64,000 nucleotides of DNA from Candidatus Woesearchaeota archaeon (GCA_018302765.1 JAGVZG010000001.1:68482-132481), one strand, 5' to 3'; positions 15,725-54,520 are shown, counted from the stretch's first letter. Notes: generated by a model not told the origin, from the letters alone. Numbers and translations: made by a program.

Positions 15725-17041
15725 ATGGCAGACGTAGTTGTTCCGGATGGATCTAGCAGAGATGACGATACAGATAAAATTATAACTATAGATATGAGTG
15801 CAATAGCAGATGATACTACGCCTTTACTTCAACAAGTTCATAATGAAAAAAGTGAACCAATGGCTATACCTAATTCTTTAAATTTAAATCTTATTCATGA
15901 TACTAAAATTCATGAGCAAATTGAAGATTTGCGTGTTAGAGACTGTCCTAGTTTAGAAAAGGTTTTGATAGGTTTGGGATATGATGATTCACACAATATT
16001 GTTAATGTATCTGTAGAAGACGCTGATCCTATTTATTATAAGGTTGGAACTGGTCTTGTATTTCAAGTAGACTTAGAAATTAATATTGGTACGACTACAA
16101 GTGGTTTTGTTGGAATTGATTATAGGACATGTGAAATTCCGAATTTGCATGTTTTGGCAAGAAATTCTTCTAATTTAAATCGTAATAATAAATTAGCGAG
16201 CTTGTATAAGAAATGGGTAGATTTTAGTTATAAACATAATTTTAGTAAAATTGTAGGAATGATGGACAGCGATGATGTCGTTAGAATATTCAGAATTTTT
16301 GATTATGATAATATTGAAAATGTTGAAATTCATAAAGTTGAATTAGTTAAAAATGAATATTATTTAGAGGCTTCTTGTTTTTATAGATCTTCTGTTGGGA
16401 GTATAAAATCAAGTTTATTTTGTGGAAAAATTCCAGCGAGTAAAATTTTATTAGACGTACGTTATTTGGAAGCAAATGTGATGAATTTGAAGAGAAAATC
16501 TTCAGCAGGAAAAATTATATCTATTGGCGCTTTTGGACTTGCTAGTTTGCTTGGCTTAGCTTATTTAGGATTGAGTACTCAGGATGTTTCTGGCTATAGT
16601 CCTGATTTATTGACTTCAAGTGGCGGTGATTTAGTAAGTCCTGCAGATATGACGCTTCATGAAGATCTTAAGTCTGAATATTTAGGTGACGCTAGCAATG
16701 GCGTTGCGGTTGATTTAGGAAGTAGTTCTAGTCATCCACCAGTTAGAATTTCTTTTATGGCACGCAGACCTAAAACTAAGGGCAGTTTATTTGTTAAGGT
16801 TGGTGGTGCTTCAGATGGAAGACATGTATTTAAGTATACTGCTGGAAAAGTAGGTTCTTATAGTACAAAAACAGGTAAGCCATCTTTTTATTCAGATGCA
16901 TTTAATGATTGGGTTGGCACAACTGCTGACAAATATGAAAAAGTTGATTCAGACGGTGTTTATAATAATAAAAATTGCAACAAACCACAGAAAGGTTTAA
17001 TGAAAGATATGCCTGCTTATGTTTGTGCGCAGCCAAAGTAA
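15725..17041 (+). CDS. membrane protein P1: acidic N-terminal domain, central TM helix, C-terminal FKY/CKPQ/AYVC domain (paralog family)
   Basis: TM segment ISIGAFGLASLLGLAYLGL. The C-terminus (VRISFMARRPKTKGSLFVKVGG...VFKY...VYNNKNCNKPQKGLMKDMPAYVCAQPK) is near-identical in key motifs to the 32512 and 33830 proteins. Confidence 0.55.
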   Translation: MADVVVPDGSSRDDDTDKIITIDMSAIADDTTPLLQQVHNEKSEPMAIPNSLNLNLIHDTKIHEQIEDLRVRDCPSLEKVLIGLGYDDSHNIVNVSVEDADPIYYKVGTGLVFQVDLEINIGTTTSGFVGIDYRTCEIPNLHVLARNSSNLNRNNKLASLYKKWVDFSYKHNFSKIVGMMDSDDVVRIFRIFDYDNIENVEIHKVELVKNEYYLEASCFYRSSVGSIKSSLFCGKIPASKILLDVRYLEANVMNLKRKSSAGKIISIGAFGLASLLGLAYLGLSTQDVSGYSPDLLTSSGGDLVSPADMTLHEDLKSEYLGDASNGVAVDLGSSSSHPPVRISFMARRPKTKGSLFVKVGGASDGRHVFKYTAGKVGSYSTKTGKPSFYSDAFNDWVGTTADKYEKVDSDGVYNNKNCNKPQKGLMKDMPAYVCAQPK

Positions 17042-18176: not shown

Positions 18177-18611
18177 TTAAATGTCAACAAGCACTTTTGC
18201 TTTCCATTTGTCTTCTTCTTTTATTATTTCAAATTCATGCATTGTAATTGCCTTTGCATCGTCATGGAGATCCTGAGTTTCTCTGTTGATAAAATCACCT
18301 TCACATCTTGCAAATATTTCATATACTTTATTTTTGTGTGATATAACAACATCGAACTTGTTAAACAGCAAACCTTCTGTGTCTTTAACAAATATAAGTT
18401 CTGAAAGAAAATCATAAAGAAGATTTTCTATGGAATTTGTTTTTAGTGATATTTCATAATGCTCTTTAGTCTCCAATGTTTTTATGTCTACCATGATTTC
18501 TTCTAGAGCCAGAGCTGAATTTTCAAATAGGCTTTCTAATGTTTTTCCATAGGCTTCAAAAATTATATCTGCTGTGTGTGGTAGAAATTTATACTTCATC
18601 TTCTTTAACAT
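18177..18611 (-). CDS. archease (RtcB activator)
   Basis: 144 aa. The N-terminal FLPHTADIIFEAYG motif (HTAD) and a C-terminal ...KVLVDI match the archease family. Confidence 0.8.
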   Translation of the reverse strand: MLKKMKYKFLPHTADIIFEAYGKTLESLFENSALALEEIMVDIKTLETKEHYEISLKTNSIENLLYDFLSELIFVKDTEGLLFNKFDVVISHKNKVYEIFARCEGDFINRETQDLHDDAKAITMHEFEIIKEEDKWKAKVLVDI

Positions 18612-19053
18612 TCCTTCTTTCTACAACAATATTTATTTGCGTTGTCACACCTTCTTTATCTTCCCTTATTAAAATATTTCTGTCAGTTATTTGTTTTACA
18701 ATGTCTTTTATTGTGTAATCTGACTTCATTTTATCTCCAATCAAAACAGCATTTAGCATATATTCATTTGAAATTTGTTCTATTGTGATCTGCTTTATTG
18801 CTGATAATACAAATAACTCGTTATTTGCTAGTTCAAATAATCTTTTTAGAAATTGGAAAAGCAGATTTTTAAGATCCCTTGCTCTTATTATCAGTGTTTT
18901 TGTAATAGCTAGATCTATTTCTTCTGTGTTTATTACAATTTCAAATAATGACTTTGCTATTTTTGAGAACGATGCTTCTAAACTTGATGCTTTTTCTGAT
19001 ATTGTTATTTCTTCGACTTTGTGCTTTGACATAAGCTTTTTAATGCAATGCAC
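18589..19053 (-). CDS. archease-like paralog lacking the HTAD motif
   Basis: 154 aa. ASSLEASFSKIAKSLFEIV and ARDLKNLLFQFLKRLFELANNELFV align with archease core helices, but the metal-binding H-T-A-D is replaced by T-I-S-E. It overlaps the archease start by 23 nt. Confidence 0.45.
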   Translation of the reverse strand: MHCIKKLMSKHKVEEITISEKASSLEASFSKIAKSLFEIVINTEEIDLAITKTLIIRARDLKNLLFQFLKRLFELANNELFVLSAIKQITIEQISNEYMLNAVLIGDKMKSDYTIKDIVKQITDRNILIREDKEGVTTQINIVVERRNVKEDEV

Positions 19054-19144: not shown

Positions 19145-21649
19145 ATGGGAAAGGTTTTGAACTACGTAGGTAGAGGCATAAGAAATTTTGTTAGAAGGCA
19201 CAAGAAAGGGATTTCGCTAGCTGGAGCTTTAGTATTTGGCACTTCTGCTGCTTTAACTTGTGGCATTTATAAGTATATAACTACTCCTCCAAAGGATTTT
19301 GGAAGAGTAGGGCAATACTGGCATACTTACAAAGAACGTGAAAAATTAAAAAGTATAGAAAATAATGGTGCTTTAGAAAATAAGTTGAATATAAATAGAA
19401 AAGATAATGGTTCTTCAGGCGGGGCTTATCCTGATCCTAATATAATAGGCATTTGGCCGTTAACTCCGGATAACGGAATTAAGGTAGTTACTTCCAGTGG
19501 CAGAGAAATTGTTACTAGATACGCCACTTGGAACTATGCTTCTTTGGATGAAGTACCTAAAACTGTTATAAATTCTGTTTTAAGTGTAGAAGATGCAGAC
19601 TATCTTGAGCATAAAGGAGTAAACTGGAATTTAAGGAAGATTAAGGGTTTATTTTCTCCTATTCTTGGTGGAAGACGTGTTGGTGGAAGTGGCATAACAG
19701 AACAAGTATCTAAAATGATGTTTACTGATTTTGGTAAGATAAAGCCTAGGAGATCAGCAATGCAGAAACTTCGTGAGTTGCGTTATGCTTATTATTTAGA
19801 TAGTGTGCTTGGCAAGGAACAAGTATTAGAATTTTATTTGAATACAACGCCATTAGGAGACAGTTGTTATGGCGTAAAGTGCGCTGCTATGAATTACTTT
19901 GGTAAGGAACTGAGTAATTTAACTTTTCCTGAGAGTTTGTTTTTAGCAGCAATTATTAAAAATCCAGGAGCAAATCCAAAGAATAGTGGTTTTGAATTTC
20001 AAAAACGTAGATATGACATGCTCTGTGAGTCTTTGCACGATCTTGAAAGGATTACTGAAGATCAATATAAGGAGTGCAAATCTGCAGATGTGATTAAAAT
20101 GAAGCCTGGCTTAAAAAGAAGAAGATCTCCAATAAGTGATCCTAGTGTTTTTAGTGCTTTGGCTTATGAATTAGAAAATTATGATTTTGATTTAGTTGAC
20201 AATGTTGTTCATCAGCCAAATCCAGGTTTTGGGTTTACAGTTTATACTACAATAAATGATGAGATGCATGACGCTTTAGGCCAAGCATTTGTGGATGGAC
20301 TTAAACCAAATCAAGAACAGGTTCAACTTGGCGCTGGCGCTGTGCTGAATAGCGAGGCTCAAATAGTTGCTATTTTAGGCAGGACAGACTACAGTACGCT
20401 AAGCGGAGCTTGGAGTTTTAGGAATCTTGCTGTAGCTGGGAGACGTGCTGCTGCTTCTTCAATAAAGCCTTTTGTTTATGGTTCTTGCTATGACCAAGAG
20501 AATTCAAATATTACATGCAAACCAGGCAATGTTATTTCTGATTCTAAAAAAGGATTGAGAAATCCTCCTCATAATTTTGATGGAAAGTATGAAAGAAGAA
20601 TGTCTTTAGCAGAAGCTTTAACTTCATCGAATAATGTAATAGCTTATAAAGTGTGTCGTAGAATTGGACTTAGAAATGTACTTCCAGTTATAGAAGCTGT
20701 TGGATTTGATGTTGCTGAATATGAAACAGTATTTAGGGACTGCAGAAATACTGCTTTAGGCTCAGGGCGTGTAACTCCTTTAGAACTTGCTGCTGCTTAT
20801 CGTGTTTTTGTAAAAGACGATGATGGTAATTTTTCTGCAGAATATAGAAAGCCAACAATTATTGATAGGGTTGATTTATGGTCTTTTAATTACAAAGTAA
20901 ATCTATCTGCAACAAAAGTTTTTCGTAGTGCTAACACAGTTGAATCTGTTAGAATTAGCTTAGACAGGCTTGGAAATAAAATTGTTGGCAGTAAATATGA
21001 AGCAGATATAGGTTTTAAGACTGGCACTCCAAACCCCACTACACATTGGTATTTAGGTGGAGTTCTTGACCTTGATAGTGTTTCTTATTCTATAGGTTTT
21101 CTGGCTGTGGCTAAACCTAAAGTTGTACCTTCAAAAAAAAATCCTAAGGTTTTAGTAAAAGTTTATCCTAATAAGTTGTATGCTAGTGGCGTTCTTGGTC
21201 CTGTGGTAAAAAGTTTTGTTGACGGAGTTGCTCCTAGAAAAGAAATGAAGCCTATTGATCTATATGTTCCTGCTGTTGCTAGCTTGGACAGCGTATGCAG
21301 TAATTATAATTTAGCAAGCGTTGAGCTAACTTTGCCTAGTGCTGATAATCACGATCTTGAGACACTGGGAGATATTTTAAGTGCTTGCTCTTCTTATTTT
21401 TCTGCTAATAATGAAAATGAAAAGTATGGCTTATTTTCTTACGCTGCAGGCCGTGTCTGGGAGACTTTGTACAGTAATGAAGCAACGTCTTCTCCAGGCA
21501 GCAAAACTGCTTTGCTTTACTATAGCAGTGCAATTAATTCTTATAAAACAGCTGTTCAGGAAGACAGTTTTAGTAGTTTAGCTGAAGAAAGAATTAGAGA
21601 TTTAAAGATTAAAAGAGAACAGGAAGCTAATAGAATTCATGCAGATTAA
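19145..21649 (+). CDS. class A penicillin-binding protein (bifunctional GT51 peptidoglycan glycosyltransferase / D,D-transpeptidase), N-terminal TM anchor
   Basis: GT51 motifs EDADYLEHKG, GGSGITEQ, QKLRE and VLEFYLNTTPLG...YGVKCAAMNYFGK...LTFPESLFLAAIIKNP. Transpeptidase motifs SSIKP (SxxK), SSN (SxN) and KTGT appear with canonical spacing. A TM segment lies near the N-terminus. Confidence 0.8.
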   Translation: MGKVLNYVGRGIRNFVRRHKKGISLAGALVFGTSAALTCGIYKYITTPPKDFGRVGQYWHTYKEREKLKSIENNGALENKLNINRKDNGSSGGAYPDPNIIGIWPLTPDNGIKVVTSSGREIVTRYATWNYASLDEVPKTVINSVLSVEDADYLEHKGVNWNLRKIKGLFSPILGGRRVGGSGITEQVSKMMFTDFGKIKPRRSAMQKLRELRYAYYLDSVLGKEQVLEFYLNTTPLGDSCYGVKCAAMNYFGKELSNLTFPESLFLAAIIKNPGANPKNSGFEFQKRRYDMLCESLHDLERITEDQYKECKSADVIKMKPGLKRRRSPISDPSVFSALAYELENYDFDLVDNVVHQPNPGFGFTVYTTINDEMHDALGQAFVDGLKPNQEQVQLGAGAVLNSEAQIVAILGRTDYSTLSGAWSFRNLAVAGRRAAASSIKPFVYGSCYDQENSNITCKPGNVISDSKKGLRNPPHNFDGKYERRMSLAEALTSSNNVIAYKVCRRIGLRNVLPVIEAVGFDVAEYETVFRDCRNTALGSGRVTPLELAAAYRVFVKDDDGNFSAEYRKPTIIDRVDLWSFNYKVNLSATKVFRSANTVESVRISLDRLGNKIVGSKYEADIGFKTGTPNPTTHWYLGGVLDLDSVSYSIGFLAVAKPKVVPSKKNPKVLVKVYPNKLYASGVLGPVVKSFVDGVAPRKEMKPIDLYVPAVASLDSVCSNYNLASVELTLPSADNHDLETLGDILSACSSYFSANNENEKYGLFSYAAGRVWETLYSNEATSSPGSKTALLYYSSAINSYKTAVQEDSFSSLAEERIRDLKIKREQEANRIHAD

Positions 21650-27003: not shown

Positions 27004-27894
27004 ATGGTTTTGATAAGAAAAAAATCAATAGATAGCAAGGAGTATTATTATTTGGAACATTCATTTAGAGAAGCAGGTTCTGTCAAAAAAAAAGAACTTT
27101 ACTTAGGAACTGAGATTCCCAAAAATATTGAAGAAATCAAGATAAAATTTACTGAAGAAATATATAAAGAAAGATGGAGTAAAACATTAGAAGAGATAAA
27201 AAAAGAGTATAATAAAGAAAATAGATCAATACCAGAATCGTTAACTGAAAAAGAAATAGAATCTTTTATGATTAAATTTACTTATAATACTCAAAGGATA
27301 GAAGGTTCAAGGTTAACATTAAGAGAAACTGCAAATTTATTAGAAAAAGGAATAACGCCCAAAGAAAAACCTGTTAGAGATGTTAGAGAAGCAGAAGCAC
27401 ATAAAAAAGTATTCTATGAAGTGTTAAAATTCAAAAAAGACTTGTCATTAGATTTAATTCTTCATTGGCATAGAATGTTGTTTTTAGAAACAAAAAAAGA
27501 TATGGCTGGAATACTAAGAAAACACCAGGTTGCAATATCTGGGAGTAAGTTTATACCTTCCTCTCCTGTAGAAGTTTATTTATTATTAAGGGAATTCTTT
27601 AAATGGTATGAAAAAAATAAAAGTAAGATAAATCCTGTAGAATTAGCAGCATGCGTTCATTTAAAATTTGTTACAATACACCCATTTGGAGATGGGAATG
27701 GGAGAATATCAAGACTGATGATGAATTTTGTTCTCAAAAAAAATAAATATCCAATGTTAAATATAAAATATGAAGGAAGAAATAGTTATTATAATGCGCT
27801 TGAAAGATCGCAAGTAAAGAAAAATGAAGGAATATTTATACAATGGTTTATAAAAACTTATATAAAAGAAAATAAAAGATATTTGAAGAAATAA
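27004..27894 (+). CDS. fic: Fic-family protein (AMPylase-type) with putative inhibitory helix
   Basis: Fic motif HPFGDGNGRISR (HPFx[DE]GNGR). An upstream TQRIEG matches the [ST]xxxE[GN] auto-inhibition motif. Confidence 0.8.
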   Translation: MVLIRKKSIDSKEYYYLEHSFREAGSVKKKELYLGTEIPKNIEEIKIKFTEEIYKERWSKTLEEIKKEYNKENRSIPESLTEKEIESFMIKFTYNTQRIEGSRLTLRETANLLEKGITPKEKPVRDVREAEAHKKVFYEVLKFKKDLSLDLILHWHRMLFLETKKDMAGILRKHQVAISGSKFIPSSPVEVYLLLREFFKWYEKNKSKINPVELAACVHLKFVTIHPFGDGNGRISRLMMNFVLKKNKYPMLNIKYEGRNSYYNALERSQVKKNEGIFIQWFIKTYIKENKRYLKK

Positions 27895-27898
27895 GTTC

Positions 27899-27924
27899 CT
27901 CATCCCTGTTTTTCTAATATTTGT
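27899..27924. repeat. 26-bp direct repeat (copy 2 of 2)
   Basis: Identical to 26911-26936. Confidence 0.85.
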
Positions 27925-28078
27925 ACAAATATAGATCCTTTAATTCGTTTTGGAAAAATTTTTAGCTATCTCTCTTGAAGTTAAACTAAACTATGAATTT
28001 CCGCAAGGGTATGCTCATACTATCTAAATAAAACTTTGAAATTTTAAAAATTTAAGATGAATAGTCGCCAGAAATCTA

Positions 28079-28665
28079 GCGAGCTTCTAAATTGAGAAAT
28101 TATTTAATTAAGCTCGCGACCACTCTTTAGAGTGGAGTGAATGGTGTGTAGAAACATTATTCTAGAAATAGTTTAGGAATAATGCTGGTAAAGTGATGCA
28201 TCCCGAAGGAGGCAACGATGAGCATCTACTAGCAAAATACTCATGCACATTCAATCGCATGGAGCACATGGCATTTTGAATGGTGCACTAAGTATTGGTA
28301 TAATATATTCAGGCAAGACTACATTAAAAATCTTTGCCTGATTGCAATAAGCGAAGCTGCAAAGAAGAATAAGATAGAAATTATGGAAATTGAAGTGGAT
28401 GTAGATCACATTCATCTTATTGCTTCAATTCCACTAACAATGGCGCCTAGTAAAGCACTAAACTTAATCAAAGGATTTAGTGCTTACTTATTGTTTAAGA
28501 TTGTACCAAATCTCAGGCTTAGATATAGAAAAGGACATTTATGGAGCAAGGGAAAATTTGCAGCAAGTGTTGGGCATATAACTTTAGAAAATGCGAAAAA
28601 ATATCTCGAGGAGCATCACGCCAAATCAATTAAAGGAATCTCCACCCTTTAGGGTGTGAGAGGAT
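28079..28665 (+). mobile_element. IS200-like (tnpA-only IS200/IS605 family) element with subterminal hairpins
   Basis: Left hairpins GCGAGCTT/AAGCTCGC (28079-28117) and CCACTC-TTTA-GAGTGG (28120-28135). A similar CACCC-TTTA-GGGTG hairpin sits at the tnpA stop (~28645-28660). An HUH/Y1 transposase ORF lies in between. Confidence 0.55.
28233..28652 (+). pseudogene. tnpA: IS200/IS605 family transposase TnpA (HUH Y1), N-terminally degenerate or frameshifted
   Basis: The C-terminal two-thirds is conserved (EIEVDVDHIHLI HUH motif; GHLWSKGKFAASVG; catalytic Tyr region KKYLEEH). The in-frame upstream part has no ATG, and an ATG is found only in another frame. Confidence 0.55.
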
Positions 28666-32511: not shown

Positions 32512-33774
32512 ATGTCTATTAAAAATTGGACAATAGGTGGCCTTGGTGCACTTGTTTTAGGACTTGCTGCTTCTTCTTTAACTTGTAAGCCTTGCAATGA
32601 TTTAGCAAGAAAAGTTAGTGGTAAAGAACTTCCTTTATTTGGTCGTGTTAATGGAAATACGCAAAACAAAAATCCTGCTCCTTTGCCTAAGCCTCATGTT
32701 GCAGATGACGAACCTGCTGCTGACGAAGGTAGTAGTGATGATAGTTCTGAAAAAACTACAGAATCTGCAGAAGTAGAATCAAAAAGTTCTGGTTCATCAG
32801 ACGCAGATTCTTCTTCTAAAAAACCTAGTTTTGTTAAAGTTGGCAATGTTGGAAATAAAGACGTATTCAAATATGACTTAGGTAAAGTTAGGGATGGAGA
32901 GGGTTCATTTTTGTACGCTGTTAGATTTAATAAATGGGACGACAGTTCTGAAGGAGACACCTATAAAAAAGTTGGTCAAAATGATGTTTACAATAATAAA
33001 AATTGTAAGCCACAGAAAAATTTTATGAAAGGTATGCCTGCTTATGTTTGTGTTCTTCCTAATAATGGGGAAAGTGGAGACACTCCTGGAGATGCTGGTG
33101 ATCGTGCTCCAAATAATGTTGAAGTGAGGTCAGATTCTGGTGCAGTTGCAACAACAGATCCTACATCTACTCGAACTTTGCACGTAGCAATAGAACGTCC
33201 AAGTTCTCCAGATCTTGGTTCAGATTCTGGCGTAGGCAGTTCTGGAACAATTGAATTAGTTGTTAATCCTTATGCTAATGCTACTGAGACAGCAACTCCT
33301 GCTGAGAGTGGCGACTCTGAAGATGATAGTTCTGGCGATACTTACGATGAAGATGCTGCTGGCACTTCTGGTCGTCGTGATTATACTGACCCTTTTGGCG
33401 TTGTTTTGTCTGGCGACCCAGTTGCAGCACAATATGGCACTGCAATAATAAGTGGTTTTAATGAAGCTTATCAAGATAAATATAGGACTAAGAACAGCGG
33501 TAAATGCTTAAGTGTAAATATTGGTTTAGAATACGCTGTTGGAGCAAAAGGCGAACTTGTTAGTATAAGGGGATATTTTTGTGGGGACTTAGAATCATGC
33601 GCTGGAAGAGGAAAACTTTATTTGGATCAACCTCATGATTCTAGTTTAGATGAAAATTTTACTTTTGGAAGAGAGCTGATTAAGGTAATAAGAGTAGAGA
33701 ATTCTAAAAGGCCACTTGTTTCTGTCAAAAGAGGAAACTACGTAGGTTCTATAATTGAATTTGGTTGTGAATGA
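32512..33774 (+). CDS. secreted protein P3: signal/TM N-terminus, acidic Ser/Asp/Glu-rich low-complexity linkers, FKY/CKPQ/AYVC domain (paralog family)
   Basis: N-terminal hydrophobic segment GGLGALVLGLAASSL. The KKPSFVKVGNVG...VFKY...VYNNKNCKPQKNFMKGMPAYVCVLP domain matches the C-terminus of the 15725 protein. Confidence 0.55.
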   Translation: MSIKNWTIGGLGALVLGLAASSLTCKPCNDLARKVSGKELPLFGRVNGNTQNKNPAPLPKPHVADDEPAADEGSSDDSSEKTTESAEVESKSSGSSDADSSSKKPSFVKVGNVGNKDVFKYDLGKVRDGEGSFLYAVRFNKWDDSSEGDTYKKVGQNDVYNNKNCKPQKNFMKGMPAYVCVLPNNGESGDTPGDAGDRAPNNVEVRSDSGAVATTDPTSTRTLHVAIERPSSPDLGSDSGVGSSGTIELVVNPYANATETATPAESGDSEDDSSGDTYDEDAAGTSGRRDYTDPFGVVLSGDPVAAQYGTAIISGFNEAYQDKYRTKNSGKCLSVNIGLEYAVGAKGELVSIRGYFCGDLESCAGRGKLYLDQPHDSSLDENFTFGRELIKVIRVENSKRPLVSVKRGNYVGSIIEFGCE

Positions 33775-33829
33775 TAAGTTTTAAATAGTAGTAATCACTC
33801 TTGTGTGATAACACCATTGGGAGGAGTAA

Positions 33830-36061
33830 ATGTCTTTAAGATCACTACTATATGCAGCGCTTTTTTTATTTATTGGCAGTGCTGAAACTAACGTTGATGC
33901 TGCTAGAAAACCTAGGTCAGAGAGAACAGCGTTTTCTAAAATAAAAGAAAAGGGTAATGTACATGTTTTTAAGTACAGAGTATCTAGTGGTGAAAAAGAC
34001 AGTGATATTGCTTTGAAATTTGGGATTTGGGACAGAGGCCAAGGCAGTTTGTATGAAACAGTTACTTCTGCAAGCGTTACTGGCGACCCTTCTTGTAAAC
34101 CTCAACTTCTTAAAAAAGAAAACATTGCTTATGTTTGCGCTAATAGAAAACTACGTGTAGTGCCTAATGATTTCAAAGGGCCTTCTATTGAATTTATAGA
34201 TTTGTTTGATACTCCTTATTGGGGTTCTTTGTTGAAGGTTACAAAGAGTTTTGGTCCTGATGGATTTCCAGTTCACACTGTTGATTTAAATATAACTGCA
34301 AGAGAAAAAATAAATGTTAATTCTAGGAGAAGTGCTTATGCTTATAGAGGTTCACATGATTTGGAAAGTATAACTATTTTTGCTTTTGATAGAGATGCTG
34401 AGAGAGATCTTACTTTATGTCCAGAAAAAGTCTATGAGTTTAAGTATGACGAGCTAGTTACTTTGCCTAATTGCATTACTGATGGTTCTTATGGTATTTT
34501 GGCAGCTTTAGAACATTTTGCTAAGTTTGAGTATGGCGTTTTAGATAAATATACAGAAACTGTTCCGCCAGGATTAGCAGGTTTTAAGGCTGGAAGATTA
34601 GTTAAACCATCTGCAGAACTTGCACCAGCTCCGATAATATTTATAACTCCTCCACCTTCTCCAACACCTTTAGTTCCAGTTCCAGTTTCAACAATACCAG
34701 CAGCTCCTAGTGGTTCAAGTGCTTCATCTTCTGCTACTACAACAGTTCATTCTCCACCTATTAGTTTCAAAGCTAGAAGACCAGGACCTGGTTCAGCTGT
34801 ACCTTCAGTTGGTTCAGGAATTTCAACAATACCAGCAGCTCCTAGTGGTTCAAGTGCTTCATCTTCTGCTACTACAACAGTTCCTTCTCCACCTATTAGT
34901 TTCAAAGCTAGAAGACCAGGACCTGGTTCAGCTGTACCTTCAGTTCCAGCTTCGGTTTCTGTTTTTAGCGGTTGGACTGATACCGCTTTAGGTTCAAGCA
35001 CTGAATCTTGTAGTGCCTGCGCATCAACAAACTCAGTACAATTTGTAGGAGGAGTTAGAGTTCGTGGCTTGTTAAGTAACGTTGAATTTAATAGCAACAC
35101 AGGTTTAGAATCTTCTTATGGTTTTATTGGTGGAGATTTACGTTTAGTTTTGGGTGGGGGTGTTGGGAATAATTATTTAGCAGTTTCTGCAGCTGCTGGA
35201 TTAAGAAAAGTTGGCGTAGATGGATTATTAAGTAAAAGGCTTTTGGACTTTGGTGACAATAGTAATACAACTCATGTAGAAGTTGGACCGTCTGGAAGAT
35301 TACATTTAGCTAAAGGAAATAAATTGGAAGTTGATGCTGTACTTAATCCTGCTTTTTTATATAGTAGAGAGCGTGTAAATAATTTTGGCGGAAATAGTTT
35401 CTTAGAGGAAGGTAAAGGGCTTAGGATAAATGGCAGTGTAGCTTTACCTCGTCTCTTATTTAATGGAGAAAAATTTGCTTGGGGTTTATACGGTGATTTT
35501 GATTTAGAGGCATTGAGACTAAAGCAAACTAATCTGAATAGTGGACAGGAAACTTTGTTTGGCTGGAGAACTAGAGGATCTTATGGCGGAGGCAGTTCTT
35601 TTAGTTTTGATGCTTTAGGAACAGACGTTAATATTGGTGTTGGATTTAGGACGCACCATAATTATAATTTAGCTTTAAGAAGTAATTTATCTCCTAATGA
35701 TTTAAAGTGGTTACAATACAGACAACAGAGAGGTTTTATACTTGATTTAAGTGATCTTACTGTAGGTGATTCTAGAGGGTATACTTTAGACCCAGCTTTA
35801 ACTATTGAAAATGATAGGTTTTATTTAAGACTTGAAGGACAAGTATCTATTTATGGAAATGTAAGGAGAGGGGGATTTTGCTTAAATACTGGTGGCAAAA
35901 CCAGAGGTGGTTTATACATTGGTAGTGGGTTTTGTTACAGTGATATTACTCAAGAATCTGAAGCAGGCAGTGCCAGAAGCAGGGGAGGATCAGTTAATAT
36001 TACTTTAGGAAGTCCCAGTATTAAATTAAATCCAAGAATTGATCAGGCAGACATAAGATAA
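33830..36061 (+). CDS. secreted protein P4: signal peptide, divergent FKY/CKPQ/AYVC domain, Pro/Ser-rich region with tandem ISFKARRP-containing repeat, Gly/aromatic-rich beta-strand-like C-terminal domain
   Basis: Signal peptide LLYAALFLFIGSA. Motifs VFKY...SCKPQ...IAYVCA are present. SPPISFKARRPGPGSAVPSV appears twice. The C-terminal ~350 aa shows alternating hydrophobic/polar residues rich in G, N, R, Y and F. Confidence 0.55.
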   Translation: MSLRSLLYAALFLFIGSAETNVDAARKPRSERTAFSKIKEKGNVHVFKYRVSSGEKDSDIALKFGIWDRGQGSLYETVTSASVTGDPSCKPQLLKKENIAYVCANRKLRVVPNDFKGPSIEFIDLFDTPYWGSLLKVTKSFGPDGFPVHTVDLNITAREKINVNSRRSAYAYRGSHDLESITIFAFDRDAERDLTLCPEKVYEFKYDELVTLPNCITDGSYGILAALEHFAKFEYGVLDKYTETVPPGLAGFKAGRLVKPSAELAPAPIIFITPPPSPTPLVPVPVSTIPAAPSGSSASSSATTTVHSPPISFKARRPGPGSAVPSVGSGISTIPAAPSGSSASSSATTTVPSPPISFKARRPGPGSAVPSVPASVSVFSGWTDTALGSSTESCSACASTNSVQFVGGVRVRGLLSNVEFNSNTGLESSYGFIGGDLRLVLGGGVGNNYLAVSAAAGLRKVGVDGLLSKRLLDFGDNSNTTHVEVGPSGRLHLAKGNKLEVDAVLNPAFLYSRERVNNFGGNSFLEEGKGLRINGSVALPRLLFNGEKFAWGLYGDFDLEALRLKQTNLNSGQETLFGWRTRGSYGGGSSFSFDALGTDVNIGVGFRTHHNYNLALRSNLSPNDLKWLQYRQQRGFILDLSDLTVGDSRGYTLDPALTIENDRFYLRLEGQVSIYGNVRRGGFCLNTGGKTRGGLYIGSGFCYSDITQESEAGSARSRGGSVNITLGSPSIKLNPRIDQADIR
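34688..34945 (+). repeat. near-perfect tandem duplication: two 123-bp units separated by 12 bp (period 135 bp) inside the P4 coding sequence
   Basis: Units 34688-34810 and 34823-34945 differ at about one base (cattct vs ccttct). Each encodes STIPAAPSGSSASSSATTTV[H/P]SPPISFKARRPGPGSAVPSV. Confidence 0.85.
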
Positions 36062-36091: not shown

Positions 36092-36565
36092 ATGATATTT
36101 TCTATTATAGTTATTTTGGGATGCTTTTTTGGATATTTAATAGCTAGGCTTACAAAGGAGGAATTGAAGAAAGGCTTGGTTTATTTTAAAATATTAGAAC
36201 TTTTTATTTTGGCTTTGTTGCCTTTTATATTTTTATATCATTCTTTTAATATTTTCTTTTTTATTTTAGGAATGTTATTTGGATTTGTTTTTAGATACGA
36301 ATATTTTTATTTTGGTGTTGGTTTTTTTTCTAGTTTTCTGAATAAAGACTTAAATTTTTTAACTTCTTCTTTGATTTTTATTTACGGTCTGCCTTATGGA
36401 AGCGTATTATTTTTTGTTAAGAAATTTAGAATGTTGTTTTATAATGTTGTTTTATTTTTTATACCATTTTTAATTTATTATCTGAATTATGATTTTTTGT
36501 CTTTCTCTGCTGGGGGCTTGTTAGTATTGTTTTTCATGAATTTTTATAGGCTTTTTAATAAATGA
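36092..36565 (+). CDS. Phe-rich small integral membrane protein
   Basis: 157 aa with 4-5 hydrophobic segments; immediately downstream of P4. Confidence 0.4.
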   Translation: MIFSIIVILGCFFGYLIARLTKEELKKGLVYFKILELFILALLPFIFLYHSFNIFFFILGMLFGFVFRYEYFYFGVGFFSSFLNKDLNFLTSSLIFIYGLPYGSVLFFVKKFRMLFYNVVLFFIPFLIYYLNYDFLSFSAGGLLVLFFMNFYRLFNK

Positions 36566-36632: not shown

Positions 36633-37091
36633 ATGGGATTTAAAGCAAGAGTTATTTTGCCTGAAAATAGACCGCCTGGCAGGGCTTATATTCATTACCT
36701 TGGAATGAACGAAGTTTATGGCTCTGTTAAATCAGCTTATAATTATTTGTTTTTTGCTCTTTCAAAGCATGGTGATAAATTATTGACTTTTGATTTCTTT
36801 TTGGCTAATGTTTGGGGAGATATTAAAGAGGACAAGAAGGTTATAGATTTTTTTGGCTATAAAGATATTAAAGTATGGGGCAATAGTAATCCAAGTGCAA
36901 TTCCATTTCAAGTTGTAAATGGGGATTATTTTCCAGATGGAATTATCACTTGCGAAGATACTCTTATTGCTTTTGGTAGAGAAGGTGAATTTAGGAGAAA
37001 AACTAATAATCTAGATGAGTTTATGAGAAATTATCCAAGTGATATTGGCGGTTTAGAAAAAGGAATAATTACTATTTATCCTAGAAAATAG
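36633..37091 (+). CDS. hypothetical protein
   Basis: 152-aa ORF. Confidence 0.4.
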   Translation: MGFKARVILPENRPPGRAYIHYLGMNEVYGSVKSAYNYLFFALSKHGDKLLTFDFFLANVWGDIKEDKKVIDFFGYKDIKVWGNSNPSAIPFQVVNGDYFPDGIITCEDTLIAFGREGEFRRKTNNLDEFMRNYPSDIGGLEKGIITIYPRK

Positions 37092-37127: not shown

Positions 37128-37871
37128 ATGTTATACTTAATTGGACTAGGATTGGGAGATGAGAAGGATTTAACTCTTAATTCTCTGGACGTTATTAAAA
37201 ACTGCAGTTTTGTTTACTTAGAAAATTATACTTCTTTTTTAGTATTTGATGTTAAGAAATTAGAATCTTTAATTGGCAAAAATGTTATTTTAGCAGAAAG
37301 GGAGTTTGTTGAAACCAGTGATGAAATGATTAACAATGCTTTAAATTCTGATGTTGCATTTTTAGTAAAAGGTGATGTTTTTTCCGCAACAACGCATGTG
37401 GACTTGTTTTTGAGAGCAGTTCATCATGGCATTAGGTGTAGTGTTTTGCATAATTCTTCCGTGCTTACAGCTGTAAGTGATACTGGATTAAGCTTATATA
37501 AATTTGGAAGAGTTGTTTCTATACCTTTTGATTATAATAATGTTTACAGTTCTTATGAAACATTTTTAAGCAACGGAGATTCACATACACTTTTCTTACT
37601 AGACTTAAAACCCAGTGAGAATAAATTCATGAACTTTAAAGACGGATTTAATTATTTATTAAATAAAAGTGGAGAAAGAAATGACAGTAGAATTGGCCTT
37701 GACACTATGTGTGTTGTTTGCGCAGCATTAGGAACTGATAAGGCTGTTATAAAATATGGCAAGATCTGTGACTTATTAAATTTTAATATTGATGCTTACC
37801 CGCAGTGCATTATAATTCCTGGCAAGACGCATTTTGTTGAAGAAGAAGTTCTTAATTTATTTAGACTATAA
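37128..37871 (+). CDS. dph5: diphthine synthase
   Basis: MLYLIGLGLGDEKDLT at the N-terminus, and a tetrapyrrole-methylase fold pattern characteristic of Dph5; 247 aa. Confidence 0.8.
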   Translation: MLYLIGLGLGDEKDLTLNSLDVIKNCSFVYLENYTSFLVFDVKKLESLIGKNVILAEREFVETSDEMINNALNSDVAFLVKGDVFSATTHVDLFLRAVHHGIRCSVLHNSSVLTAVSDTGLSLYKFGRVVSIPFDYNNVYSSYETFLSNGDSHTLFLLDLKPSENKFMNFKDGFNYLLNKSGERNDSRIGLDTMCVVCAALGTDKAVIKYGKICDLLNFNIDAYPQCIIIPGKTHFVEEEVLNLFRL

Positions 37872-38566
37872 TGGTGTCGGAACAATACAAGAGATATGTA
37901 GAAAATTTTTCTCGAGTAAATGGCAATGGTGATTTATTTAATCCTATTCGTGAAATTTTTAGAACTAGAAGTGATTGGGTATTACCTATTGATTTTTTCT
38001 TAGTTGGATATCTAAATGATTCTGGAGACTATATTGAAAGTCTTGGAATTCCCGGTCTTCGTATAATGTGTCGAAGAGATTCTGCAATGTGGAATGGTTT
38101 TTGTTCTTATACTGAAAGACAATTAAATACTATTATTAATTATCTAAATAATAGTTATGGTTTACCAACAAAAGATAGATTAAATTTTTCTAGTAGAAAA
38201 TTTGTTATGCACACTGTTAAAATAACTGATATTCTTGATAGTTGTTGTTTGGAATTACCTGGCGATGAAGTAGTTGATTTATCTTCTAAAATTGACTCAA
38301 TTACTGTTAGAATTATACCAAGACTATCCCATCCATCAAAGTTTAATGTTGAACAAGGATTTTATCATGCGAATGGCGTTCTTGATATTTATCAATCTCC
38401 TGTTTTAAGAGGAGATATTTTAGCTCATGAAATAGGGCATGGCATATTTGGTTATGACCATCATGAAATAAAGGGTTGTTTGATGGATAGTACTTCAAAT
38501 AAAAATGAACCAAATATTAGCTTTTGTGAAGAAGATCAAAAAGTACTTGCAAGATTAATATCTTAA
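37871..38566 (+). CDS. archaemetzincin-like zinc metalloprotease
   Basis: HEIGHGIFGYDHH...GCLMD...FCEED matches the HExxHxxGxxH...CxM...C pattern of the archaemetzincin family. Confidence 0.55.
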   Translation: MVSEQYKRYVENFSRVNGNGDLFNPIREIFRTRSDWVLPIDFFLVGYLNDSGDYIESLGIPGLRIMCRRDSAMWNGFCSYTERQLNTIINYLNNSYGLPTKDRLNFSSRKFVMHTVKITDILDSCCLELPGDEVVDLSSKIDSITVRIIPRLSHPSKFNVEQGFYHANGVLDIYQSPVLRGDILAHEIGHGIFGYDHHEIKGCLMDSTSNKNEPNISFCEEDQKVLARLIS

Positions 38567-44611: not shown

Positions 44612-45247
44612 ATGGCATTTAAACTAATTTGTTTTGATATGGATGGCGTTATTTTTAAAGATATTAATTTTTGGATTGAGCTACATAAAAAGTTTGGAAC
44701 ACTAGAACAAGGTAAAATATTGACTGAAAAATATCTCCATTCAGATTATGCTAAATTAGTTGAGGAAGTAGTTATTAAGTTGTGGAAGGGGAAAAACGCT
44801 GAACTATATTATGATTTAGTTAATTCTTTGGAATATTTGCCTGGTGTTAAAGAAGTTTTTAATTATGTGAAGAACAATTATTATTTTACTGCAATTATTA
44901 GTGGTTCAAGTATAGATGTTGCTAGAAGAGTTCAAAGAGATTTTGGTATAGATCATATATATGCTAATGAATTAGTTATTAAAAATGGAAAAGTAAGTGG
45001 TGAATTTGTTTGGCCAATAGGTGCAGGAAAAGAGAAAAAGGCACAAATTATTATGAATTTATGTAATGATTTGAATATACTTACAAAAGAAGCTATTTAT
45101 ATTGGAGATAGTGATAATGATATAGAAGCATTTAAAGAAGTAGGTTTATCTATTGCGTTTAATTCTGATTCTAAAGAACTGAAAAAATTTGCAACTTATG
45201 TTGTTGATAGTAATAATTTATCTGATATATTGAAGTATTTACCTTAA
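44612..45247 (+). CDS. HAD-superfamily hydrolase (phosphoserine phosphatase-like, subfamily IB)
   Basis: Motif I FDMDGV and motif IV GDSDND. Confidence 0.7.
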   Translation: MAFKLICFDMDGVIFKDINFWIELHKKFGTLEQGKILTEKYLHSDYAKLVEEVVIKLWKGKNAELYYDLVNSLEYLPGVKEVFNYVKNNYYFTAIISGSSIDVARRVQRDFGIDHIYANELVIKNGKVSGEFVWPIGAGKEKKAQIIMNLCNDLNILTKEAIYIGDSDNDIEAFKEVGLSIAFNSDSKELKKFATYVVDSNNLSDILKYLP

Positions 45248-45317
45248 ACTCTAACTTCAATTTTTCTTCTATTGTCTAGGTCTTTAAGAAGCTCTTGTCC
45301 TAATTTGGATTTTTTAT
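45244..45317. repeat. 74-bp perfect direct repeat, copy 1 of 2 (flanks the hicBA cassette; duplicates the 3' end of the PIN-PhoH-KH ATPase gene)
   Basis: Identical to 45805-45878. Confidence 0.85.
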
Positions 45318-45559
45318 AAATATTTTGCAAATTCTTCTTCATCTATTTTTGCTAGTTTTAATACAGATTTAAGAGTTCCTATTTTTATTTCTTTATGCAT
45401 TGGAACAACAGTACCAACTTTTCCTTCAGGTGTTTCTTTAGATAATCTTACATGGCTTCCAGTTCTGCCACTTATTTGGAATCCAAGTTTATTACAAAGA
45501 ATTTTAATTGCTTCCTGTCCTGAAACTTTTCTTAGCTGTGGCATGAATATCAACCTCAA
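45314..45559 (-). CDS. hicA: HicA-family mRNA interferase toxin
   Basis: SGRTGSHVRL motif (GSH) and a dsRBD-like fold; 81 aa (the start may be the internal Met). Confidence 0.7.
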   Translation of the reverse strand: MRLIFMPQLRKVSGQEAIKILCNKLGFQISGRTGSHVRLSKETPEGKVGTVVPMHKEIKIGTLKSVLKLAKIDEEEFAKYL

Positions 45560-45743
45560 ATGTAGTCATTATGGGCTTCTCTATATCCTCTGCAGGAAAT
45601 TCTTCTAAGTATAACTCTGTAGCTTCTTTTAGATTAAATATTGCTTCTTCTATAGTATTGCCCTGACTAACTGTACCAATTTCAGGGCATTCGGCAACAT
45701 ACACATCTTCTTCTTTATGTAAAACTGCAGTTAACGTTTTCAT
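45504..45743 (-). CDS. hicB: HicB-family antitoxin
   Basis: YVAECPEIGTVSQGNTIEEAIFNLKEATELYLEE matches the HicB/UPF0150 N-terminal domain. It lies upstream of hicA with overlap. Confidence 0.7.
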   Translation of the reverse strand: MKTLTAVLHKEEDVYVAECPEIGTVSQGNTIEEAIFNLKEATELYLEEFPAEDIEKPIMTTFEVDIHATAKKSFRTGSN

Positions 45744-45804
45744 AATATTTTATAGTTGTACATTTTTATATACTTATCGCCCCTTTAAACGTAAATCTTT
45801 CAGA

Positions 45805-45878
45805 TTAAACTCTAACTTCAATTTTTCTTCTATTGTCTAGGTCTTTAAGAAGCTCTTGTCCTAATTTGGATTTTTTAT
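45805..45878. repeat. 74-bp direct repeat, copy 2 of 2 (native 3' end of the ATPase gene)
   Basis: Identical to 45244-45317. Confidence 0.85.
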
Positions 45879-48974: not shown

Positions 48975-49775
48975 ATGGGAAAACTTGTCTTAGGCTTGTT
49001 TCTTCTGGTTTTACTTTTTGGTTGTACTCAACAGACTATTAATCAAGAGAAGGTTTCTTCTGGAAGGGTTGTTTTTGTGGTTACAGATGCTGCAGCAGAT
49101 ATGAAGATAGCCACAAATGTAAAATTAACTTTTGATAGTGTAGAAGTTCATAGCAATACAGAAGGATGGACAAATGTATCTTCTACTCCTAAAACTTATG
49201 ATTTGCTGCAGCTGACTGAAGGTCATAAAGTTATATTAGCTGATGTTCAATTAAAAGAAGGAACATATCAACAAGTTCGTTTAGATGTTTCAAAAGTTGT
49301 TGTGACAGATGCTAGTGGTGATCATGAAGCTAAATTGCCTTCTGGAGAATTGAAGATAGTTGGCGAGTTGGTAGTTAAATCTAATACAACTACTGCAGTA
49401 ACTTTTGACTTTATTATGAATGAGTCATTGCACGTAACTGGAAATGGTAAGTATATATTGGCTCCTGTTGTACGTTTAGAAATACATGAGGATGCTGATA
49501 TTAAACCTCAGCCATATGGTAAATTTGAAGTTATAGGTAAATTAAAAACTAATGTTAAAGTTGGTATGGATATTAATGGAAATTTTGGTACTGGTCTTAG
49601 CATTCCAAAAGGTAGCGAGTTATCAATTGAAAATGATAAAGTTAAAGTTGGCGCAAGAATTACAGGCGCTGCTGTTAGTGAGAAACCAAAAGTTGTTGTT
49701 CGTGATTTATCTTCTGATAGCGGTGATGATGGTGGTATTGTTGATATAGAGGGTTATTCTATTGTTAATCAGTAG
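48975..49775 (+). CDS. secreted lipoprotein (DUF4382-like)
   Basis: Signal peptide plus LFGC lipobox-like Cys. The YDLLQLTEG...GTYQQVRLDV...LPSGELKI pattern resembles the DUF4382 family. Confidence 0.45.
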   Translation: MGKLVLGLFLLVLLFGCTQQTINQEKVSSGRVVFVVTDAAADMKIATNVKLTFDSVEVHSNTEGWTNVSSTPKTYDLLQLTEGHKVILADVQLKEGTYQQVRLDVSKVVVTDASGDHEAKLPSGELKIVGELVVKSNTTTAVTFDFIMNESLHVTGNGKYILAPVVRLEIHEDADIKPQPYGKFEVIGKLKTNVKVGMDINGNFGTGLSIPKGSELSIENDKVKVGARITGAAVSEKPKVVVRDLSSDSGDDGGIVDIEGYSIVNQ

Positions 49776-53987: not shown

Positions 53988-54520
53988 GTTTTTAGTTTTA
54001 TTATACATAGTATTATTATTAATAACATTGCAGTTATATTCATTAAAGGTATTGTTATGTATCCATATTGCATAAAACTTGTTTGAGAACAAGAAGGTCC
54101 TGTCGCTGAGCATACTGCATTTTGCACAGTAAAAAATACATTTTTTATTTGTAAACTATAATGATAAGTCCCTATTAACAGGCTTATTGCTGCAAGAGAT
54201 AGTATACACTTTGCGTATACTCTTTCTTTTGTAATTAAGCTCACTAATGCAATTATAAGTATTGGATATGTAAATGCTCTTTGATACCAGCATAGTTTAC
54301 ATGGATCTATTCCTGCAATTTCTGATATAAATAAACTAGCTAGAACTGCTATTAGGCTTATTGCTATTATTATTTCTATGTTTCTTTCATACAGAAATTT
54401 GTTTATTTTATCTGATATTTTATTTTTTGTGACTAATGTAATTATATAAATTAAAATAAATATCTGGATAATTAAAGTCCCAGTTGATAGTATATTTATT
54501 ATTATTTCTTTGGCAGTCAT
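53924..54520 (-). CDS. DsbB/BdbC-like disulfide bond formation membrane protein
   Basis: Four TM helices. DPCKLCWYQR (the PCxLCxYQR DsbB signature) is in the first extracytoplasmic loop, with a second Cys pair CSATGPSC. Confidence 0.55.
   Translation of the reverse strand: MTAKEIIINILSTGTLIIQIFILIYIITLVTKNKISDKINKFLYERNIEIIIAISLIAVLASLFISEIAGIDPCKLCWYQRAFTYPILIIALVSLITKERVYAKCILSLAAISLLIGTYHYSLQIKNVFFTVQNAVCSATGPSCSQTSFMQYGYITIPLMNITAMLLIIILCIIKLKTYFLNNKTKIIALKKETTAPK

Follow-up and report, generated by a model that had tools for sequence, protein, structure and literature searches.

Does a woesearchaeal genome encode outer-membrane-type β-barrels and TonB-like proteins, and what would such a pair do in an archaeal envelope? 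Two adjacent genes, P3 and P4, raise this question. They lie at positions 32,512 to 36,061 of a 64,000-nucleotide stretch of DNA from Candidatus Woesearchaeota archaeon (GCA_018302765.1, JAGVZG010000001.1:68482-132481), the whole of which we analyzed and refer to as the window. Transmembrane β-barrels and tethers of the TonB type characterize the bacterial outer membrane and its organelle descendants. P4 is a predicted exported protein whose C-terminal domain is modeled as a 14-stranded barrel of this kind, and P3, encoded directly upstream, combines a single hydrophobic segment with a C-terminal domain that resembles TonB_C. We give about even chances to the reading that the two proteins form an envelope bridge, in which a TonB-like tether and a stalked β-barrel channel would reach a second lipid layer.

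In the list of open reading frames (ORFs), P3 and P4 are co-directional, with exactly the boundaries given in an earlier note on this DNA that was made from the sequence alone:

32512..33774, + strand: P3 coding sequence, 420 aa; an exact-sequence look-up gives NCBI MBS3151884.1, "hypothetical protein"
33830..36061, + strand: P4 coding sequence, 743 aa (ORF list, look-ups); MBS3151885.1 is near-identical, belongs to the same 90% cluster and is annotated "hypothetical protein"

The spacing is 55 nt from P3 to P4 and 30 nt from P4 to the following gene, which is identical to MBS3151886.1, also a "hypothetical protein" in NCBI. Sequence searches with P3, P4, and their immediate neighbors gave zero matches in Pfam, NCBIfam, or the PDB, and look-ups of the exact 743-aa P4 sequence returned its source ENA contig only. 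The two genes had been taken for tandem paralogs, which holds for a single common module of ≈85 aa, named for its FKY...CKPQ...AYVC signature. P4 does contain the divergent copy of this domain that had been proposed, aligning at aa 30-114 with aa 102-185 of P3 (36% identity, E 7e-9, BLASTP); outside the module, P3 and P4 are unrelated, and the remainder of P3 ends in the TonB_C-like domain.

The anatomy of P4 is as follows:

33830..33901, + strand: Sec-type signal peptide, aa 1-24, read directly (MSLR, with R4 in the n-region, then a hydrophobic core and GSA/VDA cleavage motifs)
33902..34156, + strand: FKY module, aa 25-109, with Cys pair 89/103 (BLASTP and hidden Markov model, HMM)
34190..34561, + strand: family-wide N-domain, aa 121-244, with Cys pair 197/215; aligned in all members, with motifs SW..L.V, DRD, and LP.W..DG.F
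34562..35041, + strand: Pro/Ser/Ala/Thr-rich stalk, aa 245-404 (composition S21 P18 A13 T9)
34686..34945, + strand: 135-bp tandem repeat, 1.9 copies, 99% identical (TRF), encoding a 45-aa unit with ISFKARRP
35042..36010, + strand: predicted 14-stranded β-barrel domain, aa 405-727 (AlphaFold2, Foldseek, periodicity)
36011..36058, + strand: C-terminal tail, aa 728-743, SPSIKLNPRIDQADIR, with a final family-invariant Arg (unstructured in the model, pLDDT 74-86)

The C-terminal domain (composition G15 L13 S9 R8 N8) shows a period-2 hydrophobic moment well above that of shuffled sequences (z = +3.4), together with a depressed helical periodicity (z = -2.9), and its period-2 score is the second-highest of the 50 window ORFs of at least 150 aa. 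AlphaFold2, run with an alignment of 11 sequences (P4 and 10 homologues), gave a predicted local distance difference test (pLDDT) score of 90.3 and a predicted template modeling (pTM) score of 0.84, the five models ranging from 88.5 to 90.3 in pLDDT. The model consists of 14 consecutive antiparallel strands of 13-23 residues each, joined by turns that are mostly 1-7 residues long. One loop of 36 residues (aa 612-647) carries a conserved helix (aa 622-633), and a Cys pair (684/702) lies on adjacent strands. A Foldseek search of the PDB returned 155 matches at E ≤ 1e-3, the best 50 of which are all bacterial outer-membrane barrels or components thereof. At the top are 14-stranded FadL (E 6.8e-8), OmpG, CymA (TMq up to 0.55), and TodX, with PorB and EstA also present; the TM-scores are moderate (0.42-0.55). 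Porins likewise rank first in a viral structure library.

In most strands, a hydrophobic face lies opposite a polar or charged one (e.g. TVIVFTH versus DNGGRHN). The interior of a closed 14-stranded barrel is too wide to be filled by a packed hydrophobic core, and thus the hydrophobic face would be expected to meet lipid. We regard the structural assignment of the P4 C terminus as an outer-membrane-type barrel, made on the predicted model, as fairly secure. The suggestion that its last ≈350 aa form amphipathic barrel strands is thereby borne out, whereas an S-layer-like sheet or a β-helix, proposed alongside it, is not what the model shows. At the sequence level, neither P4 nor its relatives belong to any curated outer-membrane family in Pfam or NCBIfam (two unrelated one-member matches reached E 0.05-0.07), and PDB sequence and profile searches with the barrel family gave nothing relevant. 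No Pfam or NCBIfam S-layer family matched P4, and no S-layer protein is among the best 50 of the 155 PDB matches. The follow-up therefore produced neither a confident fold unrelated to surface β-structures nor a common annotated S-layer domain: the fold match is to outer-membrane barrels, and the family is one of "hypothetical" proteins at NCBI.

An exhaustive HMMER search of 1.84 billion representatives, with P4 aa 370-743 as query and a threshold of E ≤ 1e-3, identified 12 proteins. Two of these are a truncated P4 variant and a chimeric contig, and 10 are full-length relatives, comprising the orthologue P0004 (38% identity, E 2e-55) and nine distant proteins (E 2e-13 to 8e-4). P0003, on a 2176-bp JGI contig, was rejected as a true fusion; its 410 aa join PheRS β-subunit domains to 72 aa of the P4 barrel (93-96% identity), almost certainly through chimeric assembly. 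Three word-index homologue searches, family alignments included, returned only P4 itself, the truncated variant, and the chimeric contig, probably because the Pro/Ser stalk swamped the word filter. Two further members came from loci retrieved later, for 13 in total.

These proteins share a common architecture of signal peptide, N-domain of ≈120 aa, variable linker, and C-terminal domain of ≈335 aa. The signal peptide, with n-region, hydrophobic core, and AxA-type motif, is present in P4 and all 12 relatives (13/13), and the barrel domain lies at or near the C terminus in 10 of 10 relatives. The N-domain HMM matches every barrel protein with E values of 1e-19 to 1e-36 and has no relatives in the PDB or Pfam. 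Within the family, the FKY module occurs in P4 and its closest orthologue P0004 only. P4's eight cysteines form four local pairs. The alignment shows that the stalk varies in length and content across the family; in P4 it is indeed the Pro/Ser-rich segment with ISFKARRP repeats that had been described, built on the 135-bp unit. The 90% cluster of P4 contains both a 743-aa form with two units and a 698-aa form with one, each from several independent assemblies, and a one-copy variant fragment, P0002, exists as well. Because the 743- and 698-aa forms differ by exactly one 45-aa repeat, the repeat copy number is polymorphic.

All six relative contigs that we opened, as well as the two later members, present one syntenic locus. 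Its order is tryptophanyl-tRNA synthetase (TrpRS), a 513-794-aa protein with a central transmembrane helix, an anchored protein of ≈190-290 aa, the barrel protein, and a polytopic membrane protein of ≈155 aa, followed downstream by a ≈150-aa protein (in some loci), diphthine synthase (Dph5), AsnC, MscS, and a methyltransferase. Its frame of TrpRS, barrel gene, Dph5, AsnC, and MscS recurs in at least nine Woesearchaeota/Nanoarchaeia assemblies; carriers include the assemblies with MBS3151884-6 as well as GCA_018302545.1, GCA_053531355.1, GCA_023245565.1, GCA_964372555.1, and GCA_964359805.1. Locus L008 departs from it in that a 200-aa protein with the same C-terminal domain replaces the 513-794-aa one and the anchored middle gene is absent. 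A genome-contig scan seeded with the ≈155-aa neighbor (orf157) yielded 15 loci, 14 of them labeled as Woesearchaeota, Nanoarchaeia, or Nanoarchaeota metagenome-assembled genomes and one as "archaeon"; the barrel occurs in a subset only. The middle, signal-anchored protein between the TonB-like and barrel genes, with motifs YDVECFD..GR and Y.C.AAN, is found in six of eight related loci:

L003, 9266-9940: middle anchored protein
L006, 4651-5346: middle anchored protein
L007, 6198-6935: middle anchored protein
L009, 6238-6936: middle anchored protein
L012, 5343-6215: middle anchored protein
L013, 5624-6319: middle anchored protein

The lineage of the window and L002 is without this gene and is the only one whose barrel protein gained an N-terminal FKY module.

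P3 is made up of one hydrophobic segment, two spacers, an FKY module, and a C-terminal domain:

32533..32586, + strand: N-terminal hydrophobic segment, aa 8-25, probably a signal-anchor/transmembrane helix (best 15-aa hydropathy window LGALVLGLAASSLTC, mean 1.87)
32629..32805, + strand: acidic Ser/Asp/Glu/Pro low-complexity spacer 1 (S20 P11 D11 K9 A9 E9)
32806..33066, + strand: FKY module with Cys pair 165/180 (BLASTP against P4 and P1; HMM match aa 99-185)
33067..33366, + strand: Ser/Asp/Gly/Thr low-complexity spacer 2 (S14 D13 G12 T11)
33367..33771, + strand: C-terminal TonB_C-like domain, aa 286-420 (profile searches)

The composition of the linkers agrees with their earlier description as Ser/Asp/Glu-rich. 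Both proteins had also been credited with signal peptides; that of P4 is a canonical Sec signal, whereas the single hydrophobic segment of P3 is more likely a signal-anchor, and the matching proteins in relatives have a transmembrane helix ahead of the same downstream regions. The C-terminal ≈100-130 aa of P3 align with a fragment in L002, with the C termini of the large upstream proteins, and with the 200-aa protein of L008. When a profile of eight such sequences, P3 included, was searched against the PDB, all 13 matches at E ≤ 10 were TonB C-terminal domains from several species, the best being 7zc8_B (E 2e-4), with nearly the full domain aligned. With P3 left out of the profile, TonB chains occupied ranks 1-13 (E 0.0034-0.15), followed by two unrelated chains. 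In Pfam, TonB_C was the sole family matched, by three of seven members and below threshold (best E 0.012, far short of family-level). From these profile comparisons, we consider the TonB_C assignment to be good at the level of the family and of moderate strength where P3 alone is concerned.

By HMM, a TonB_C-like gene precedes that of the barrel in the window and in 7 of 8 related loci (L002, L003, L005, L007, L008, L009, and L012); in L013, the C terminus of the upstream 620-aa protein was assigned by eye. Such a gene is thus present wherever the upstream flank of the barrel gene can be read. The TonB-like proteins of 513-794 aa are located at L003 7393-9273, L005 3019-4920, L007 3817-6201, L009 4422-6269, L012 3799-5340, and L013 3772-5634. 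Before the transmembrane helix, they carry a conserved N-terminal domain of about 260-270 aa, presumably cytoplasmic; P3 is without this domain. A single membrane anchor is common to all: one hydrophobic segment (aa 8-25) in P3, one transmembrane helix ahead of the spacer in its counterparts. The Pro-rich spacer of TonB is not found in P3, whose Ser/Asp/Glu/Gly/Thr-rich spacers contain 7-11% Pro and are interrupted by the FKY module; runs of Lys and Pro do occur in some counterparts.

Set beside known systems, P4 is most like FadL/TodX, OmpG, and CymA, which share with it a Sec signal peptide and, going by the predicted model of P4, an all-next-neighbor antiparallel meander of 14 strands (Foldseek E 7e-8 to 1e-5, TMq 0.42-0.55). 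FadL and CymA contain hatch or plug elements, and the loop helix of P4 could occlude the lumen likewise. P4 differs from these porins in having no sequence similarity to Pfam outer-membrane families, in its very short loops on both sides (two excepted), in its 16-aa Arg-ended tail in place of a terminal aromatic, and in placing the barrel behind an N-terminal region plus stalk of ≈400 aa, in an archaeon. P3 and its counterparts resemble TonB (PF03544) in having one membrane helix, a long spacer, a C-terminal domain of ≈100 aa, and an adjoining barrel gene; several P3 relatives even have a Lys/Pro-rich spacer, for example PTPKPKPKKKP in L005. P3 departs from TonB in its sub-threshold Pfam matches, its acidic Ser/Asp/Glu spacer with FKY insert, and the lack of ExbB/ExbD nearby, and bacterial TonB is without the ≈270-aa N-terminal cytoplasmic domain of the P3 relatives. 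TonB-dependent transporters have 22 strands and a plug, in contrast to the 14 strands and no plug of P4. The logic of a globular module turned toward the inter-membrane space, an extended stalk or hinge, and a barrel in one chain recalls the OmpM/SlpA and OmpA outer-membrane tethers; P4, however, has no SLH or OmpA_C domain in Pfam searches, its Pro/Ser stalk is not a coiled coil, and its barrel has 14 strands. Type Va autotransporters also join N-terminal domains of extracellular type to a C-terminal barrel, and the autotransporter EstA (3kvn) is a significant though mid-ranking structural match, but they have 12 strands and an α-helical linker as opposed to P4's 14 strands, Pro/Ser stalk, and lack of a family match. 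The parts of P4 and P3 thus resemble bacterial outer-membrane barrels and TonB, and curated membership fails on sequence, C-terminal signal, partner genes, and barrel size.

How might such a pair work? Starting from the observed domain anatomy, family, and synteny and from the predicted folds, we propose that P4 would be exported by the Sec pathway and that its barrel (≈325 aa) would form a channel through a lipid layer beyond the cytoplasmic membrane, with the conserved loop helix and/or the Arg-ended tail probably blocking part of the lumen. The FKY module and N-domain of P4 would hang from the variable stalk of ≈160 aa, which would cross the gap between the layers. P3 would be held in the cytoplasmic membrane by its N-terminal helix, with the acidic spacers extending outward to the TonB_C-like domain. 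We infer contact between the two proteins by strand pairing, the TonB_C-like domain being expected to dock on a β-strand of P4 as TonB does on its transporters; the strand that receives it might be the first one of the N-domain (IEFIDLFD in P4, VEIVTLDD and similar in relatives), ISFKARRP, or the tail. Because no ExbB/ExbD was seen in the window and related loci, a static tether or gate appears likelier than an energized transducer.

As to which membrane would receive the barrel, we slightly favor the cell's own outer layer because of the tether-like architecture, the invariant C-terminal signal, which suggests resident machinery, and the periplasm-type genes in the window, namely those for a class A penicillin-binding protein, a lipobox lipoprotein, and a SIMPL protein. 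A DsbB-family gene (PF02600) lies at 53924-54520 (- strand), implying disulfide formation outside the cytoplasm, which fits the paired cysteines of P3 and P4. The class A penicillin-binding protein (834 aa; 19145-21649, + strand) has an N-terminal transmembrane helix followed by a GT51 transglycosylase domain and a transpeptidase domain (Pfam E 2e-38 and 1e-10, respectively). Its motifs EDADYLEHKG, GGSGITEQ, SSIK438, SSN494, and KTG625 are intact, and RKxxE was not found. The enzyme could make a murein-like layer, or its target could be a bacterial partner. Reviews describe archaeal walls as free of peptidoglycan (PMC5744192). Double membranes have been reported in some archaea, including the DPANN group ARMAN (PMC4243693, PMC8871954).

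Several results weigh against the envelope bridge. The AlphaFold2 alignment is shallow at 11 sequences, and the barrel assignment was made from strand order and fold matches of the predicted model. The C-terminal aromatic β-signal of outer-membrane proteins is absent: in all 13 members, Arg is the last residue of a non-strand tail of ≈16 aa, most with the pattern L.P..R....[LI]R, and we know of no sorting signal that matches such a tail. The link of P3 to the TonB_C-like family is modest and indirect, P3 matching the P3-less profile over the first half of the domain with an hhalign E of 7.6e-5 (probability 62%) and an hmmsearch E of 0.0017 among 850 ORFs. Pfam families of the ExbB/ExbD (MotA/TolQ) type were not found among the called genes of the window and seven related loci; more broadly, neither the window nor the flanks of the retrieved loci contain genes for BamA/Omp85, ExbB/ExbD, or lipid transport, and no barrel family other than that of P4 was seen in them. 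A literature search found no imaging of the Woesearchaeota envelope, and the cultivated DPANN imaged to date are mostly S-layered.

The same evidence can be read in other ways, one of which denies the barrel. On this account, the C-terminal domain of P4 is a β-rich wall or S-layer-type structure, such as a sheet, β-helix, or open β-taco, and AlphaFold2 was over-confident. The alignment of only 11 sequences, the pLDDT of 29 obtained in single-sequence mode for P4 aa 370-743, the moderate TM-scores against real barrels (0.45-0.55), the weak amphipathicity of the last three strands, and the missing C-terminal aromatic are all compatible with it. The five models nevertheless agree (pLDDT 88.5-90.3), the best 50 of the 155 PDB matches contain no β-helix or S-layer protein, long antiparallel strands with short turns are the signature of a meander barrel, and the strand-type periodicity is significant, which leaves this account improbable in our view. 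An autotransporter-like display, in which the barrel exports and anchors the FKY module and N-domain as an adhesive passenger while the Pro/Ser segment threads the pore, would explain the type Va order of signal peptide, N-terminal globular domains, linker, and C-terminal barrel, along with the appearance of EstA among the structural matches (3kvn, E 1.2e-6, TMq 0.43) and of autotransporter β-domains among those from the viral library. P4 has 14 strands instead of 12, however, and is matched better by FadL, OmpG, and CymA; it has no Pfam Autotransporter match, its linker is a Pro/Ser stalk of ≈160 aa and not a short α-helix, and the first model strand begins right at the domain boundary. Such display would still require an outer membrane, and we hold it, too, to be quite unlikely.

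A different destination for the barrel is somewhat unlikely but deserves more weight. Here P4 would stay tethered via its N-terminal modules and P3, while its barrel, at the tip of the flexible stalk, would enter the outer membrane of a partner or host (a Gram-negative bacterium, for instance) as a contact-dependent pore and draw nutrients or lipids across it. Most DPANN archaea live as episymbionts. For Woesearchaeota and Pacearchaeota, attachment to bacteria or predation on them has been proposed (PMC8204110, PMC9723730). The presence of a single barrel family and the absence of a BAM-like gene in the window and retrieved loci agree with this account, as does the variation of stalk repeat number in the population; moreover, the exact P4 sequence occurs on one contig compared with 23-26 for P1 (a further FKY-containing gene, below) and the gene after P4, which fits a variable, surface-exposed protein. 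Yet we know of no precedent for a monomeric 14-stranded barrel that inserts itself in a foreign membrane, the invariant tail suggests dedicated machinery in the archaeal cell itself, a TonB_C-like partner makes more sense in an inter-membrane space, and the host is not known. Finally, the pair might have arrived recently as a gene island from bacteria and play no integrated part in archaeal biology. As the earlier note observed, P3 and P4 are GC-richer (0.383 and 0.372) than their flanks (≈0.30); in addition, the predicted folds are typical of bacteria, and Woesearchaeota hold many bacterial-type genes (PMC8204110). The GC excess, however, is confined to the first and second codon positions, third-position GC (GC3) being 0.169 in P3 and 0.163 in P4 and 0.125-0.23 in neighbors. 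Because the proteins are Gly/Ala/Pro/Ser/Arg-rich and the GC3 of 0.163-0.169 is that of the adjacent housekeeping genes, the compositional shift follows from the encoded proteins and the DNA is native; as a sign of foreign origin, the shift does not stand. In at least nine Woesearchaeota/Nanoarchaeia assemblies, archaeal TrpRS lies on one side of the locus and diphthine synthase on the other, and the 10 full-length relatives (541-746 aa) have the architecture of P4, all six opened contigs being this archaeal locus. A recent island is thus highly improbable, whereas an older transfer into the ancestor of the clade is compatible with the data.

Full-text literature searches for outer-membrane-type barrels and TonB-like proteins of Woesearchaeota or DPANN came up empty, and as far as we are aware neither kind of protein has been described in any archaeon. 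The closest published parallel is a protein of Altiarchaeales that may be a distant porin-like relative (PMC12228718), and the few archaea reported to have two membranes are not known to possess any component that compares with the outer-membrane proteins of bacteria (PMC4243693). A published "pore-forming toxin" of Woesearchaeota was rejected as related; it is TlyC. Taken further, and with considerable doubt, the window may point to a clade of Woesearchaeota with a Gram-negative-style two-membrane envelope, furnished with Arg-signal barrels, a TonB-like tether, a murein-like layer made via the class A penicillin-binding protein, DsbB-dependent disulfides, and lipoproteins; several of these parts are encoded in the 64-kb window. 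On that reading, P4 and its relatives would be the first archaeal transmembrane β-barrels and would offer a first molecular handle on an archaeal outer membrane. A conserved, vertically inherited pair would give a concrete, testable entry to the question of whether these uncultured nano-archaea possess their own second membrane, and it would bear as well on how they plug into partner membranes. P4 represents a new protein family, and its invariant C-terminal Arg could reveal a route of barrel assembly that is independent of BAM.

Beyond P3 and P4, the FKY module recurs elsewhere in the window. P1 (15725..17041) ends in a copy that matches P3 with E 3e-17 and P4 with E 5e-6:

16760..17038, + strand: third FKY module, at the C terminus of P1 (aa 346-438), after a transmembrane helix and an ISFMARRP motif

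The module is also present in P0004 and within the large TonB-like proteins of L013 (E 1.8e-11) and L009, a distribution that makes it look like a mobile building block of the P3/P4 system. It has no match in the PDB or Pfam, and the impression by eye that it is LysM-like found no support in these empty searches. P1 and P2 had both been suggested as co-members of the system; for P1 this holds for the 85-aa module only, and P2 was rejected, with no detectable link to any component. Neither the N-terminal part of P1 nor orf332 showed detectable homology to the N-terminal domain that the large TonB-like proteins carry. Copies identical to P1 were found on at least 23 contigs, drawn from many samples, indicating a widespread population. 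RtcB (14061-15521, - strand) and, ≈2.7 kb away from it, two adjacent archease genes (18177-19053, - strand) flank the P1/P2 pair. A short basic motif accompanies the modules, as ISFMARRP before that of P1 (16745-16780) and AARKPRSER before that of P4 (33890-33925), and the basic motif ISFKARRPGPGS occurs twice in the P4 stalk (34740-34945). This recurring motif could serve in processing or as a docking strand, or it could simply be left over from duplication of the module.

The genes around the pair are archaeal housekeeping genes, including those for aEF-1α, archaeal-type TrpRS, diphthine synthase, RtcB with archease, OapB, and OapC. Directly after P4, at 36092-36565 (+ strand), lies the gene for a polytopic membrane protein of ≈157 aa that has no Pfam match, is strongly conserved (E 1e-23 to 1e-55), and stands directly upstream of diphthine synthase in many Woesearchaeota/Nanoarchaeia loci, barrel-less ones included. 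As a dedicated partner of P4, this protein (orf157, 36092..36565) was rejected because it pairs with diphthine synthase in many Woesearchaeota loci that have no barrel. The next gene, at 36633-37091 (+ strand), encodes a soluble protein of ≈152 aa, again with no Pfam match, that occurs in about half of the barrel loci. Farther downstream, at 37871-38566 (+ strand), a conserved 231-aa protein with the zinc-protease-like motif HEIGHGIFGYDHH has orthologues in L002 and L008 and weak matches to matrixin, reprolysin, and archaemetzincin.

Other exported proteins are scattered through the window. The ORF at 48975..49775 had been flagged by its periodicity as a second barrel candidate and was rejected; it encodes a lipobox (LLFGC) lipoprotein on the + strand (48975-49775) with a DUF4382 domain (E 2e-22). 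An exported SIMPL/DUF541 protein (7871-8623, - strand; E 1e-38) has a similarly periplasmic flavor. The 952-aa product of 11157-14015 (- strand), with a signal peptide, weak FG-GAP matches, and a C-terminal transmembrane anchor, resembles a typical large surface protein of archaea. In the regions 27004-28652 and 45247-45805, the annotation of L001 places genes of mobile or defense type, namely a Fic-domain protein, an 89-aa Y1 transposase fragment (IS200/IS605-like), and a HicA/HicB pair.

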